NCBI GenBank assembly: GCA_963663895.2
Contig: CAXXRD010000001.1
Location: 672,001-736,000 of the forward strand
Direction: 5' to 3'
Length of the DNA stretch: 64,000 bases
From: Dehalococcoidia bacterium
GTDB lineage: Bacteria; Chloroflexota; Dehalococcoidia; Bin125
Shown piece after piece: positions 19,300 to 32,344 of this stretch; the first letter of the stretch is position 1; every line of letters starts with the position of its first letter. The position numbers were made by a program, and so were the translations under genes. The notes below the pieces were generated by a model. That model did not search any database, was not told the DNA's origin, and worked only from the letters and a program-made list of their open reading frames with translations.

Positions 19300-19327
19300 T
19301 CAAAACCGACTGAACCGTCGGTTTTGA
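19300..19327. promoter_or_regulatory. Palindromic operator (putative TetR site) upstream of menF
   Basis: TCAAAACCGAC-TGAACC-GTCGGTTTTGA, an 11-bp perfect inverted repeat; core identical to the site at 31676-31697. Confidence 0.8.
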
Positions 19328-19355
19328 CGCTAGCAAACCGCTCCGGGGGCAACAA
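19327..19355 (-). promoter_or_regulatory. Putative sigma70 promoter of menFDC
   Basis: Minus strand TTGTTG-N17-TAGCGT with extended -10 TG, abutting the operator. Confidence 0.65.
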
Positions 19356-19469
19356 GACGCGGCCCGCCGCCGCACGAGAGCGGGCGCGGCGCCCTCGTAT
19401 ACTGATGCGCGTTCGGCATGTCTAGAGGCCGTCCGCAAGCCGGACGGGCCTTTCCCGAAAGGAGCGGCC

Positions 19470-20240
19470 ATGGCCGCCGTCCCCGGCGAGGTGCAAGACC
19501 TCAGCCAGATCGAAACCAGCTCCACTACCTATGAGAGCGACGGGGCCTCGATCGAGGCCTATCTCGCACGGCCACGGGGCGGGGGCTCCGGCGGCGGCAT
19601 CATCGTGATTCATGAGGCGTTCGGGCCCGTCGAGCACATCCACGACATCGCGCGGCGCTTCGCCAACATCGGCTACACGGCGATCGCGCCGAACCTCTAC
19701 AGCCGCATGGGGGCGCCGGACGTGGACGACATGCAGTCCGTGTTCACGAAGATGTTCGGCCTCCCCGACCCGCAGGTGGTGCGCGACTTGGAGGGCGCGG
19801 CGGCGCTGCTGCGCGGCCAGCCGGGAAGTAACGGCAAGGTGGGCTGCATCGGCTTCTGCTCGGGCGGGCGGCAGACGCTGCTCTACGCCTGCTCCAGCGA
19901 CACCGTCGACGCAGCGGTGGATTGCTGGGGCGGTTTCATCCGCCGCGCCAACCAGGACGCCGTCACCACTCCCGAGCGCCCGACCCCCATCCTCGACCTC
20001 GTCGACCAGCTCCACTGCCCCCTCTACGCCGTCTTCGGCGGCCATGATCAGAACCCCACGCCCACCGACGCGCGTGAGATAGAGGCGCGGCTACAGCGGG
20101 CGCGGAAAACCTCCACCGTGGAAGTGTTCGAAGAGGCCGGGCATGCGTTCCTCGCGGACTACCGTCCCAGCTACCACGAGAGCGCCGCCTTCGCGCTTTG
20201 GCCGAAGATCGTGGCCTTCTTCGAGACGCATCTCCGCTAG
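19470..20240 (+). CDS. Dienelactone hydrolase family protein
   Basis: IVIHEAFG, APNLY, IGFCSGG (nucleophile Cys), GHDQ, AGHAF. Confidence 0.93.
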   Translation: MAAVPGEVQDLSQIETSSTTYESDGASIEAYLARPRGGGSGGGIIVIHEAFGPVEHIHDIARRFANIGYTAIAPNLYSRMGAPDVDDMQSVFTKMFGLPDPQVVRDLEGAAALLRGQPGSNGKVGCIGFCSGGRQTLLYACSSDTVDAAVDCWGGFIRRANQDAVTTPERPTPILDLVDQLHCPLYAVFGGHDQNPTPTDAREIEARLQRARKTSTVEVFEEAGHAFLADYRPSYHESAAFALWPKIVAFFETHLR

Positions 20241-20641
20241 CGATCGAGCGGGCGGGCGAAGCTGAGCTCGTGGCCGTCGGGATCGGTGACGTGAAAATAG
20301 CGCTCGCCCCAGCTCGCGTCGCGCGGCTCGGTATCGGTCTGCACGCCGGCAGCGGCGGCCCGGCGATAGAAGGCGTCGACATCGGAGACGTAGAACACGA
20401 TCCGCCCCCACCAGCTCCAGCGGCGCTCCGCCGGCTGAGCCGTCAGGTTGAGATAGCCGCTCTCCAGCGCGAAGCTCGTGAAGCGCTCCGCCTCGCCGCC
20501 GTACAGCAAGGTGAAGCCCAAGGCGCGATAGAAGCGCACCGCGCCGACCATGTCGTGCGTCGCCAGCGTCACGGCGCTCACGCACGTGACCGTGGGCCGC
20601 GCTTCGCCGGCAGCGGATTCAGTCGGGTCGGACGCTTCCAT
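20237..20641 (-). CDS. VOC/glyoxalase family protein
   Basis: VTLATHDM..AVRFYRALG, RIVFYVSDVD, WGERYFHVTDPDGHELSF. Confidence 0.9.
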   Translation of the reverse strand: MEASDPTESAAGEARPTVTCVSAVTLATHDMVGAVRFYRALGFTLLYGGEAERFTSFALESGYLNLTAQPAERRWSWWGRIVFYVSDVDAFYRRAAAAGVQTDTEPRDASWGERYFHVTDPDGHELSFARPLDR

Positions 20642-20672
20642 AGCCACGATGCGATCATAGGACAGCATCCGC

Positions 20673-21863
20673 GTGCCGTCTGACGGGCTCCCGGCGCGGG
20701 CCGAGATCGTCATCGCCGGCGGCGGCGTGATCGGACTGGCGACCGCGCTCGAACTCCTGAAAAGAGAGCGGGAGGTGTTGATCGTCGAGCGATCGCGGCC
20801 CGGCGCCGGCGCCAGCACGGTGGCGGCGGGCCTGCTGGCTCCCACAGCCGCGGCCGACCTGGCCGAGCCGCGGCTCATCGACTTCGCCCTGGACAGCCTG
20901 CGGCGCTACCCCGCCTTCGTCGCGGAGATCGAACGGATCAGCGGCCAGCGCTGCGAGCTGCGCGACCAGGGATCGCTCTGGCCCGCCTTCACATCGCACG
21001 ACGAAGCCAAGCTGGACGAGCTGGCGGCGCAGCATCGCCGGCGCGGGATCACATCGATGCGGCTGACGGCGGAGGAGCTGCGCGCGTACGCGCCGCAGCT
21101 CGCGGCAGCGACGCGCAGCGGCCTGCACGTCAAGGACGACCTCCGCCTCGATCCGCGACGGCTCGTGCAAAGTCTGGCCGGGGCGGTCCGGGAGCGCGGC
21201 GGGAAAATCCGCAGCGGCTACGCGGTCCGCGAGATCGTCCTTGCAGGCGGCGCGGTGCAGGCCGTCCGCACGACCGACGACGCCGGCCGGGACCACACGG
21301 TTCCCTGCGATGTCGCGGTGCTGGCCGCGGGCGCCTGGGCCACGGCCTCCCTCCGCTCGCCGTTGACGGCGGCGCCCGTGCGCCCGGTCAAGGGTCAGAT
21401 CGTGCGCCTGCGCGGCGCCACCTTGATTCAGCACGCCCTGCGCACGCCCGGGATATACCTCGTGCCGCGGGACGACGGGGAGCTGATCATCGGCGGCACG
21501 ATCGAGGAGCAGGGATTCGACCAGGCGCCCACCGCGGGCGCCGTGGCCGGCCTCCTCGATCGCGCCAGGGCGGTCGTGCCGGCGATCGACGATCTCGTGA
21601 TCAGCGAGCTCTCCGTGGGCCTGCGCCCGGCGCTGCCCGACTACCTGCCCGCCGTCGGACCCACCGGCGCCGCCGGCTTCTACGCGGCGGTCGGCCACTT
21701 CCGCAGTGGCATCCTCCTCGCCCCGGCGACGGCGCACTACCTCGCGGAGGCGATCGTCTCTGGCACCGTGCCCTCCGCGCTGGACTCGCTCAGCCCCGAT
21801 CGCCTGGGCGGGGAGAGCACGCCGGCGCCCCTGCCCGGAGCGACCGGCGAAGCGGTGCGCTAG
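20673..21863 (+). CDS. thiO: Glycine oxidase / FAD-dependent D-amino-acid oxidase family
   Basis: GGGVIG, GASTVAAGLL, AAGAW, PVKGQ, YLVPR, GLRP, GHFRSGILLAP. Confidence 0.8.
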   Translation: MPSDGLPARAEIVIAGGGVIGLATALELLKREREVLIVERSRPGAGASTVAAGLLAPTAAADLAEPRLIDFALDSLRRYPAFVAEIERISGQRCELRDQGSLWPAFTSHDEAKLDELAAQHRRRGITSMRLTAEELRAYAPQLAAATRSGLHVKDDLRLDPRRLVQSLAGAVRERGGKIRSGYAVREIVLAGGAVQAVRTTDDAGRDHTVPCDVAVLAAGAWATASLRSPLTAAPVRPVKGQIVRLRGATLIQHALRTPGIYLVPRDDGELIIGGTIEEQGFDQAPTAGAVAGLLDRARAVVPAIDDLVISELSVGLRPALPDYLPAVGPTGAAGFYAAVGHFRSGILLAPATAHYLAEAIVSGTVPSALDSLSPDRLGGESTPAPLPGATGEAVR

Positions 21864-30842: not shown

Positions 30843-31592
30843 CTACGAAGGGCTCTCTACATCAGGCAGCGGGCGGCGGGCGCTGTGCAGAGTGACGGTT
30901 CCGGCCCCCATGCGCCGAAACCGTACGTGCACCGCTCCCGCATCCGTCAGCATGCGCGCCAGCGCTTCGGCGTCGGGATAGCCATCAAGCGAACGCGACA
31001 AGTAACGATAGGCCTCATGGTCACCGCTCAGCCGGGCCGCGACTCCCGTCGCCAATTGATGGAAGAGGAAGCGGCGGGGCAGCGCGAGCGGGCCCGACGG
31101 TACATGGGTGATATCCAACGCCACCAGCCGCCCGCCCGGCCGCAGGACCCGCAACATCTCCCGTAAGCCCTGGGACAGGTCGACGAGGTTCCGCAGCAGG
31201 AAGCCACTGGTGACGGCGTCGAAGCTGGCGTCGGGGAAGGGGATCTGCAGTGCGTCGGCCTGCAAGGCCGAGGGCGGTGCTTCCCCGCGCGCCGCCGCCT
31301 TGCGACGGTCCGCTACCAACATCGGCCGCGTGAAGTCGACGCGGACCACTCGCGCCGCGCCCGCGTGTTCCAGCGCCTGTGCGAGGTCGCCCGTACCGGA
31401 GCCGAGATCCAGCACGTAGGCGCCTTCGGGCTCGGCCGCCGCTGCCGCGGCATGCCGCCAGCGTCCGTCCAGCCCGATGGTCATGCAGCGGTTCATGCGG
31501 TCGTACCACGGGACGAGACGCCCGAACATCGCTTGGATCGCGACTGCCCGCTCGCGATCGGGTTCGGGAAGCGTCGGATGTCGAGTGGTCAT
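30843..31592 (-). CDS. menG: Demethylmenaquinone methyltransferase (UbiE/MenG)
   Basis: MFGRLVPWYDRMN, LDLGSGTGD, ADALQIPFPDASFD, GFLLRN, RVLRPGG, AYRYL; divergent from tetR-menB-menA. Confidence 0.88.
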   Translation of the reverse strand: MTTRHPTLPEPDRERAVAIQAMFGRLVPWYDRMNRCMTIGLDGRWRHAAAAAAEPEGAYVLDLGSGTGDLAQALEHAGAARVVRVDFTRPMLVADRRKAAARGEAPPSALQADALQIPFPDASFDAVTSGFLLRNLVDLSQGLREMLRVLRPGGRLVALDITHVPSGPLALPRRFLFHQLATGVAARLSGDHEAYRYLSRSLDGYPDAEALARMLTDAGAVHVRFRRMGAGTVTLHSARRPLPDVESPS

Positions 31593-31640
31593 CGCACCGC
31601 CCACGCGCTCCAGCGGTCGCGCGCCCTCTCTCGCACACGC

Positions 31641-31670
31641 TTGTGAGCCGTTGCCGCGCTTTGCTAGCGT
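31641..31670 (+). promoter_or_regulatory. Putative sigma70 promoter of tetR-menB-menA
   Basis: TTGTGA-N18-TAGCGT with extended -10 TG; TTTGCTAGCGT is identical to the menF promoter. Confidence 0.62.
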
Positions 31671-31675
31671 AGCCG

Positions 31676-31697
31676 AAACCGACCACCGAGTCGGTTT
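31676..31697. promoter_or_regulatory. Palindromic operator (putative TetR autoregulatory site)
   Basis: AAACCGAC-CACCGA-GTCGGTTT between divergent menG and tetR; same half-sites and 6-bp spacer as 19300-19327. Confidence 0.8.
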
Positions 31698-31714
31698 TCG
31701 CTCCGCGAGGCGCC

Positions 31715-32344
31715 ATGGTCGGGAAACAAGCGCGAGCACGCGACCGCAAGCAACGCATCCTCGAAGCCGCCGCCGATGTTTTCGCGCAGCGCGGCTACGG
31801 CGACGCAGGGGTCGACGAGATCGCGACGGCGGCGGGCACCTCGAAGGGCGGGCTCTATTTCCACTTCTCCGGGAAGGAAGCGCTACTGATCGCACTCCTT
31901 GATCATACGAGCCGGCTGCTGATGAGCCGCGTTCGCGCGGCGCTCGACGAACAGGAGGAACCGGTGGACAGAGCGGCGGCGGCGCTGCTGACGCTGCTGC
32001 ACACGCTCGGGAAGCACCGCTCCTTGGCGCGCGTGTTCGCGGTCGAGGCGCTGGGTGCCGGGCCCAAGCTCAACCGTCGCATCCTCGAGCTGCAGCGGAG
32101 CTTTGAGGCGATCATCGAAGAGCAGCTCGATGAAGCGATCGCGCGCGGCGCGATCGCGCCGGTGGAGACACGCGTCACCGCCCAAGCCTGGGTGGGAATC
32201 CTCCACGCCGTGCTCATGCGCTGGTTACTGGACCCCCAGGCCCGGCCCATGGACGAACTCTTCCCCATTTTACGCCGGCTCCTGCTGCAGAGCGTGGGCC
32301 TCAGCGTCGATAGATCGACAGAACTCGCAGGGACGATCCGATGA
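31715..32344 (+). CDS. TetR/AcrR family transcriptional regulator
   Basis: [49 protein letters not shown] overlap with menB. Confidence 0.95.

Follow-up and report, generated by a model that had tools for sequence, protein, structure and literature searches.

Two loci for classical menaquinone biosynthesis (men genes) and a regulator gene of the TetR family lie within a 64-kb stretch of a Dehalococcoidia genome, here called the window (positions 672001-736000 of contig C1, in an assembly of 2,374,484 bases and 5 contigs that is 91% complete). One locus carries menF, menD and a menC-like gene on the minus strand. The other carries tetR, menB and menA on the plus strand, with menG divergent from them. 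The same palindrome stands before menF and before tetR, and its sequence, position and conservation make it quite probable that the 209-residue TetR protein is a dedicated, autoregulated repressor of the classical menaquinone pathway. The features in question, in order of position, are:

14947-16110, minus strand: menC-like gene, o-succinylbenzoate synthase of the enolase superfamily (PF13378), last gene of the menFDC unit
16126-17904, minus strand: menD, 2-succinyl-5-enolpyruvyl-6-hydroxy-3-cyclohexene-1-carboxylate (SEPHCHC) synthase (TIGR00173, 461.3 against a cut-off of 244.2 bits), overlapping the end of menF by 10 nucleotides (nt)
17895-19286, minus strand: menF, isochorismate synthase (PF00425; TIGR00543, 320.3 against 224.75 bits)
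19303-19324: candidate operator O1, AAACCGACTGAACCGTCGGTTT, spacer TGAACC, 16 nt upstream of the menF ATG and 2 nt downstream of the menF -10 element
19327-19355, minus strand: putative menF promoter, -35 element TTGTTG (19350-19355), 17-nt spacer, extended -10 element TGC-TAGCGT (hexamer 19327-19332)
30843-31592, minus strand: menG/ubiE, demethylmenaquinone methyltransferase (TIGR01934, 177.7 against 158.35 bits), divergent from tetR
31641-31671, plus strand: putative tetR-menBA promoter, -35 element TTGTGA (31641-31646), 18-nt spacer, extended -10 element TGC-TAGCGT (31665-31670)
31676-31697: candidate operator O2, AAACCGACCACCGAGTCGGTTT, spacer CACCGA, 17 nt upstream of the tetR ATG and 5 nt downstream of the tetR -10 element
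31715-32344, plus strand: tetR-family regulator of 209 amino acids (PF00440), first gene of the tetR-menB-menA unit
32341-33180, plus strand: menB, 1,4-dihydroxy-2-naphthoyl-coenzyme A (DHNA-CoA) synthase (NF005637, 484.6 against 380 bits)
33186-34094, plus strand: menA, 1,4-dihydroxy-2-naphthoate (DHNA) polyprenyltransferase (NF004751, 319.8 against 264 bits)

The operator consensus is AAACCGAC-N6-GTCGGTTT, a perfect 8-N6-8 inverted repeat of 22 nt, and O2 lies in the 122-nt intergenic region between menG and tetR. A preliminary description of this DNA had reported two such palindromes with identical half-sites and differing spacers, a promoter upstream of each and translational coupling of tetR to menB. 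Exact matches at both positions bear out the palindromes, their half-sites and their spacers, and the TGA of tetR and the ATG of menB do overlap as ATGA (32341-32344). At up to two mismatches the window holds O1 and O2 and no other match; the expectation by chance is 0.01, and none of 100 shuffles reached two matches. The motif is not scattered over the genome. O1 and O2, both at men promoters, are the sole exact copies in the whole assembly, where three more places match at two mismatches and the reversed pattern, used as a control, gives none. The 8-mer half-site itself occurs 47 times on the two strands. When pairs of half-sites were sought throughout the genome at spacings from 0 to 12, those with up to two mismatches were found at a spacing of 6 alone.

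Both palindromes are preceded by an extended -10 element of the form TGnTAGCGT and a -35 element of the TTGT type. A reading of the menF strand gives the order TTGTTG, 17 nt, TGC-TAGCGT, 2 nt, palindrome, 16 nt and ATG; on the tetR strand the order is TTGTGA, 18 nt, TGC-TAGCGT, 5 nt, palindrome, 17 nt and ATG. The promoter layout of the preliminary description, with 17-18 bp between the two elements and the palindrome downstream, is thus found on both strands. Since the palindrome starts 2-5 nt past the -10 hexamer, it would cover the expected transcription start, and a start 6-8 nt past the hexamer would land within the left half-site at both promoters. The arrangement TTGTnn-17 nt-TAGCGT recurs in loci of the family to which the genome belongs, and in the menF regions of relatives a TAnnnT hexamer stands 2-4 nt ahead of the palindrome. 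Upstream sequence was long enough for this comparison in 106 loci, of which 95 show a TAnnnT no more than 16 nt ahead of the best palindrome; in 56 of the 106 the two are 4-5 nt apart, and in 48 the hexamer is preceded by TG.

Conservation within the family follows the regulator and its site together. At a threshold of E<=1e-20 every one of the 24 family genomes searched besides that of the window carries a TetR ortholog, as do 7 of the 16 other families sampled from the class. The order tetR-menB-menA is kept in 23 of 23 family loci and divergent menG in 22 of them, the remaining one (L021) being cut by a contig end. The palindrome stands before tetR in every one of the 22 family loci with upstream sequence (with no mismatch in 16, one in 5 and two in 1), although TetR identity falls to 41% across these loci. 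When the 22 sites, all distinct, are aligned, the half-sites are 0.98 conserved and the spacer 0.48, with 20 distinct spacers, and the flanks reach 0.50 upstream and 0.44 downstream. Such fixed, non-covarying arms around a variable spacer mark the repeat as a site bound by protein rather than as an RNA stem. In a wider scan AAACCGAC-N6-GTCGGWTT was found with at most one mismatch in 61 of 61 family genomes, mostly in one or two places and rarely in three; the reversed control gave matches in 4 genomes.

The second site goes with menF. Of 31 family genomes, 13 were found to have menF and 13 menD, the six genera concerned being the same for both genes, and in all 13 of the menF-bearing genomes a second palindrome lies directly upstream of menF. 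The orthologous upstream regions therefore carry the motif throughout (22/22 for tetR and 13/13 for menF). Family genomes without menF have one site each, so that the genera with two sites are those with menF and menD. Orthologs of menC occur in 7 of the 31 genomes, and in three family genomes (G003, G011 and G012) the tetR unit has a true menE after menA.

A few weaker matches to the palindrome were set aside. The two-mismatch places at C1:763952 and C2:610691 are inside long open reading frames (ORFs) and are probable chance matches, as is the copy AGACCGACGGAATGGTCGGATT at C2:181153-181174, within a thiamin pyrophosphokinase ORF. This last copy (L004, 1501-1522) is kept in each of the three genomes of the genus (G000, the genome of the window, and G001 and G002), probably through coding constraint. 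Also excluded from the regulon were weak AAACCGACAACAAGGTCGGACT sites upstream of lexA in the genus g6. They occur in L043, L044 and L045 (genomes G014, G051 and G067), with AAACCGACCATCGCGTCGGACT in L046 (G074), some 160-270 nt upstream of lexA, and these look-alikes in four g6 genomes could reflect chance, a LexA-related box or a link between two regulons.

The divergent gene menG appears to share the operator of tetR. Two TA dinucleotides are present in the whole 122-nt menG-tetR spacer, and both fall within TAGCGTA. On the minus strand this heptamer reads TACGCT (31666-31671), a candidate -10 element for menG and the sole TAnnnT on the menG strand there. Divergent menG is found in 42 loci; 24 of these have the mirrored hexamer, and in 22 no other candidate lies between menG and the palindrome. 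L023, L025, L029 and L032 were mis-scored as being without it, as the extrapolated menG start had overrun the spacer. In these four loci of g6, and in L033 of g7, the menG strand reads palindrome, 3 nt, TACTGT, TAATGT or TACGCT, 6-7 nt and the first in-frame ATG of menG, which in L025, L029 and L032 has a stop codon in the same frame shortly before it. With the ATG 6-7 nt past the mirrored -10 there is no space for another promoter, and in these five loci menG is apparently expressed as a leaderless mRNA. In another scoring, where it was enriched overall, the mirrored -10 was found in 28 of 42 loci with divergent menG versus 9 of 53 without it. Within the family of the window, then, menG probably shares the tetR operator by way of the mirrored -10. 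The preliminary description had counted six men genes in the regulon while placing menG merely beside the site. The count remains plausible, and menG is now probably to be placed under the operator itself.

Beyond the family, the comparison was made with a profile built from an alignment of 26 orthologs. One genome per species was scanned, giving 559 tblastn-confirmed stretches at a lenient threshold, and the best 80 of these were compared with flanks of 6 kb. They are labelled Chloroflexota, Dehalococcoidia, Chloroflexia, Thermomicrobiales/Thermomicrobiaceae, Sphaerobacteraceae, Nitrolancea, Thermobaculum, Limnocylindrales and Anaerolineae metagenome-assembled genomes, together with one Rubrobacter record, one Acidimicrobiia record and two Enterobacteriaceae records, probably mislabelled bins. 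The link of tetR to men genes holds here as well: 76 of the 80 tetR loci have one or more men genes in their 6-kb flanks, and the other four have less than 800 nt after tetR. Among these best 80 the first gene after tetR is menF in 62, menA in 8 and menB in 5, and menG is divergent in 20. The layouts met most often run tetR-menF-menD, one further gene and menB, with menA or menC next. The further gene, between menD and menB, is menH (261.1 against 208.55 bits); menC-like genes come after menB in L091, L097, L098 and L149. Relatives with menH and menE inside the operon would thus have them under the same operator.

A related palindrome is found 20-78 nt upstream of tetR in nearly all of the best 80 loci. 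Many lineages outside the family carry a 26-nt palindrome, AAACCGACCGAC-GC-GTCGGTCGGTTT (L122, L126 and many of L082-L157), which holds two overlapping 8-N6-8 registers at an offset of 4 nt and could permit the binding of two dimers. The common Chloroflexota form is usually a single operon, tetR-menF-menD-menH-menB-menA, behind one operator. As layouts with one operon are common in the phylum, the simplest history is the split of a single autoregulated operon. The two-operator layout would then be derived, the family of the window having divided the operon with each half keeping a promoter-operator module. When the 20-nt core was scanned with up to one mismatch (background about 0.5 per genome by the reversed control), the exact copies fell in TetR-bearing genomes, at tetR and menF loci, save one in genome G028. 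In a group of loci of Dehalococcoidia type (L124, L133, L135, L146, L147, L150, L153 and L018) no men gene was found within 6 kb of tetR but one for a more distant MenA-type prenyltransferase, which comes after it and shares 35-41% identity with the MenA of the window (206 against 264 bits in L146).

The protein encoded by tetR has the features of its family. It matches PF00440 (TetR_N) at residues 15-61 (64.7 against 24 bits), and its AlphaFold2 (AF2) model is an all-helical two-domain fold with 11 helical elements (predicted local distance difference test, pLDDT, 92.1; predicted template-modelling score, pTM, 0.85). At least 500 PDB fold matches of TetR type were obtained at E<=0.001. The recognition helix T-S-K-G-G-x-Y-F-H is invariant in 26 of 26 orthologs (T42, S43, K44, G45, Y48, F49, H50), which matches the invariance of the half-site, and R106, W159 and R187 are invariant in the C-terminal domain of the same orthologs. 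This domain matches TetR_C_24, TetR_C_4 and TetR_C_13 of Pfam as well as the YsiA-like C-terminal domain. No NCBIfam equivalog scored above its cut-off, the best being of ScbR type (88.8 against 150 bits), FasR (78 against 330) and Bacillus FadR (77.2 against 200). The best PDB profile matches are FadR/YsiA of B. halodurans and B. subtilis (E 2e-29 to 7e-29). The top 10 Foldseek matches are FadR structures, including a stearoyl-CoA complex, with TM scores of 0.77-0.88, root-mean-square deviations of 2.0-2.7 Å and 24-26% identity. They are followed by Thermus FadR (lauroyl-CoA), DarR, Rv0078, SaFadR (lauroyl-CoA) and AibR (isovaleryl-CoA). Since the nearest folds bind acyl-CoA and the pathway contains o-succinylbenzoyl-CoA (OSB-CoA) and DHNA-CoA, a CoA thioester is a reasonable guess for the effector. 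The ligands suggested in the preliminary description (DHNA, DHNA-CoA or OSB-CoA) would be in keeping with such folds.

The distribution of the early genes bears on the same question. Of the 31 sampled family genomes, 16 belong to the genera g3, g6, g7 and g8, many of them 95-99% complete and some in a single contig. They retain tetR-menB-menA, menG and the operator (for example G004, G007-G009, G013-G015, G018, G019, G022 and G024), and searches for menF, menD and menC gave none in these 16 genomes. A search for futalosine enzymes of the MqnA/MqnD families was negative in all 31 family genomes. These genera look like bearers of a late-only menaquinone pathway, fed by imported o-succinylbenzoate (OSB) or a later intermediate or by some other early route. 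As the regulator is kept where menF, menD and menC were not found, its signal, if it still works there, is unlikely to be an early intermediate.

Taken from sequence, position, conservation, synteny, co-occurrence and predicted fold, a mechanism of binding, repression, transcription start and ligand may be proposed as follows. A TetR dimer would bind the palindrome at both promoters and, lying over the transcription start, block RNA polymerase at menF-menD-menC and at tetR-menB-menA. At O2 the same dimer would cover the spacer and the -35 element of the divergent menG promoter, so that menG would be repressed too. An effector held in the C-terminal pocket, which resembles the acyl-CoA-binding pocket of the FadR type, would alter the affinity for DNA; the best guess is a late metabolite of the pathway, namely OSB-CoA, DHNA-CoA, DHNA or the quinone. 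The logic could be feed-forward induction or co-repression. The repressor first suggested from the window alone is supported by independent comparative evidence, which also extends it to a probable phylum-wide system with an ancestral single operon and with menG sharing the operator.

A stronger reading may be put forward tentatively. The TetR protein would define a phylum-wide family, 'MenR', the first dedicated transcription factor of the classical men pathway, sensing a late metabolite (OSB-CoA, DHNA-CoA or DHNA itself). One dimer would gate two divergent promoters, tetR-menBA from downstream of its start and the partly leaderless menG from its -35 element and spacer. The persistence of the operator-TetR pair without detectable menF, menD, menC or futalosine genes would place the effector at or after OSB and, in the late-only genera, would turn the regulator to control of a salvage branch.

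Other explanations of the palindrome may be considered. Another protein might bind it, the adjacent TetR regulating something else and the adjacency being a conserved coincidence, and the exact core copy in a genome without a TetR match at E<=1e-20 could be taken in this sense. This is very unlikely, as the site is found upstream of the tetR ortholog even where the gene order differs, exact copies are otherwise confined to TetR-bearing genomes, and the lone exception is a terminator-like hairpin apart from men genes. The recognition helix and the half-site are, moreover, both invariant, and an inverted repeat, here of 22 bp, before the regulator's own gene is the usual autoregulatory layout of the TetR family. 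The repeat might instead work at the level of RNA, forming a hairpin in the 5′ leaders of menF and tetR, affecting stability, attenuation or translation, and not as a DNA site. Its arms can pair over 8-9 bp, a start at or before the left arm would have them transcribed, and the nearly identical hairpin of G028 does resemble a terminator. Against these stand the 22 distinct family sites, in which the arms are fixed (0.98) and without covariation while the loop alone varies, the position of the repeat 2-5 nt past the -10, where a start 6-8 nt on would truncate the hairpin, and the location of both sites between divergent genes with nothing upstream to terminate. An RNA role is accordingly rated as extremely improbable.

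It might also be asked whether the men genes are part of a wider regulon, governed by a general FadR-like regulator of lipid or acyl-CoA metabolism. Fatty-acid regulators are indeed the nearest relatives in both sequence and fold, and weak two-mismatch sites occur elsewhere, but each genome has one or two good sites, all at men loci. The two-mismatch site that is conserved in the genus lies within the thiamin pyrophosphokinase ORF, the weak g6 sites precede lexA and not lipid genes, and the NCBIfam FadR score is 77 against 200 bits; a general lipid regulator is thus highly unlikely. Finally, TetR bound to the palindrome could activate the men promoters or act on them as a dual regulator, for which FasR of mycobacteria is a precedent within the TetR family. 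A biosynthetic pathway, the weak -35 elements of both promoters and the presence of FasR (78 bits) among the nearer NCBIfam matches would all fit an activator. Activator sites are normally upstream of or at the -35 element, whereas at both promoters, and in 95 of 106 loci, the operator is downstream of the -10 and over the expected start, the position of a repressor, which leaves activation a very small probability.

The repressor proposed here has to be set against several observations that speak the other way. A consensus sigma-70 promoter scanner called neither promoter, because TAGCGT and the TTGTxx elements score under its threshold, and both promoters are therefore derived from conservation. 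Six sequencing runs contain the locus and none of them is an RNA run, so transcription starts and repression are read from the sequence. As the genomes compared are related and not independent, their counts carry less statistical weight than they suggest. One exact copy of the core (20 nt) is present in G028, a genome with no TetR at E<=1e-20, at positions 709-732 of L174 (G028:C269); it is an A/T-flanked, terminator-like hairpin on a 3.3-kb contig without tetR or a men gene, and it indicates that the core sequence can arise in another role. The mirrored heptamer shows no enrichment outside the family, where 4 of 15 loci with a divergent menG have it, so that control of menG is supported mainly within the family and the heptamer is a family trait. 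The regulon also falls short of the whole pathway, as the menE and menH candidates of this genome are without an operator; the further sites that the preliminary description expected before menE, menH, menI or prenyl-synthase genes are absent from this genome. TetR repressors, lastly, are usually released by their ligand, a logic that suits catabolic or efflux genes better than biosynthesis.

Some genes of the loci and their surroundings call for comment. The menC-like gene scores under the NCBIfam equivalog cut-offs (TIGR01927, 127.9 against 130.55 bits; NF002782, 159.5 against 288 bits), and its probable identity as MenC comes from family resemblance and from its position after menD. Downstream of it is a convergent ORF resembling Glu/Leu/Phe/Val dehydrogenases, and downstream of menA a convergent NhaA antiporter gene. 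A terminator scan after menG and after menC called none. The roughly 11 kb between the two operators holds unrelated genes on both strands, for a dienelactone-hydrolase-type protein, a DAO-type oxidoreductase, a FIST protein, a short-chain dehydrogenase/reductase (SDR), a PNPOx-like protein, a luciferase-like monooxygenase and a two-subunit 2-oxoacid:ferredoxin oxidoreductase. No MenH above cut-off was found in this genome (best 77.4 against 208.55 bits), and its best MenE-like ligase, outside the window, reaches 294.4 against 330.15 bits.

Three neighbours were considered as members of the regulon and not counted. The dienelactone-hydrolase gene (19470-20240, plus strand) is adjacent to menF in the genus of the window alone, lies about 1 kb away in G011 and was not found at the other menF loci. 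It encodes an alpha/beta hydrolase (dienelactone-hydrolase/BAAT-type) and is divergent from menF at 146 nt from O1. It could be a stand-in for MenH or for a DHNA-CoA thioesterase in a genome without MenH above cut-off. A fused CoA-transferase (12300-14411, minus strand) is separated from menC by the convergent dehydrogenase-like ORF. It combines subunits A and B of the 3-oxoacid type, and in G006 a copy with 60% identity stands divergent to menF. With the best MenE-like ligase below cut-off, a CoA-transferase route to OSB-CoA is conceivable. The korAB genes downstream of menG are present in the same genus only. Also downstream of menG, past the inserted 2-oxoacid:ferredoxin oxidoreductase genes, is the luciferase-like monooxygenase gene (27067-27915, minus strand), which directly follows menG in two loci of g9 type (L079, 4147-4986; L081, 4168-5007). 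The enzyme may be a quinone-related partner of menG.

Menaquinone (vitamin K2) is the main respiratory quinone in many bacteria and a drug target. If the repressor is real, it represents a rare case of transcriptional control of the menaquinone pathway, in which the one documented regulation is the allosteric control of MenD, and it would add a loop at the level of transcription. Neither a TetR-type nor any other dedicated transcription factor of the classical men pathway was found in the full-text literature, nor a TetR regulator of men genes in NCBIfam, RegPrecise and subscription journals being outside the scope of the search, and the name 'MenR' together with menaquinone was not found in the full-text literature. 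There is a modest chance that an equivalent regulog is already recorded somewhere. The repressor-operator pair would offer a testable case of transcriptional control over quinone supply and a candidate natural biosensor for a men intermediate, of use in the engineering of vitamin K2 strains. For the annotation of uncultured Chloroflexota it may serve as a marker of men operons and of partial (salvage) pathways, and it would be a clean natural example of a single operator serving a symmetrical bidirectional promoter.

The advance is one of specificity, the target pathway being new, and not of principle, as a TetR repressor with a palindrome and autoregulation is familiar. The TetR repressor BioQ controls biotin genes in Corynebacterium and Mycobacterium, and BioQ and FabR/DesT likewise act on a biosynthetic pathway through promoter palindromes and autoregulation. 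They differ from the present regulator in pathway, operator and lineage, and are compared with it here at the level of the family. FadR (YsiA) of Bacillus subtilis and B. halodurans (3whb/3whc, 5gp9/5gpa/5gpc, 1vi0), a TetR-family repressor of fatty-acid degradation that responds to acyl-CoA, has the same size, two-domain helical build and arrangement of the ligand domain. The present protein is, however, not a member of that group by its score (NF053878, 77.2 against 200 bits), and its predicted operators stand before men genes and not before genes of fatty-acid beta-oxidation.

Bacterial bidirectional promoters with symmetrical -10 elements have already been described, as set out in the available parts of PMC10268837 and PMC12825309. 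The likeness here is that TAGCGTA or TACAGTA, lying between the divergent menG and tetR, reads as TAnnnT on both strands. In contrast to the promoters presented in those parts, a single operator would be positioned downstream of one start and over the -35 element and spacer of the other, the starts being predicted. The regulation of the menaquinone pathway itself was little understood before the inhibition of MenD by DHNA, according to the accessible portion of PMC9835592, in which DHNA is an allosteric feedback inhibitor of MenD in Mycobacterium tuberculosis and Staphylococcus aureus. The proposed TetR control would regulate the same pathway. In contrast to that feedback, which in the portion cited acts on enzyme activity, it would be transcriptional, would act at two to three promoters or more and would operate in another phylum.

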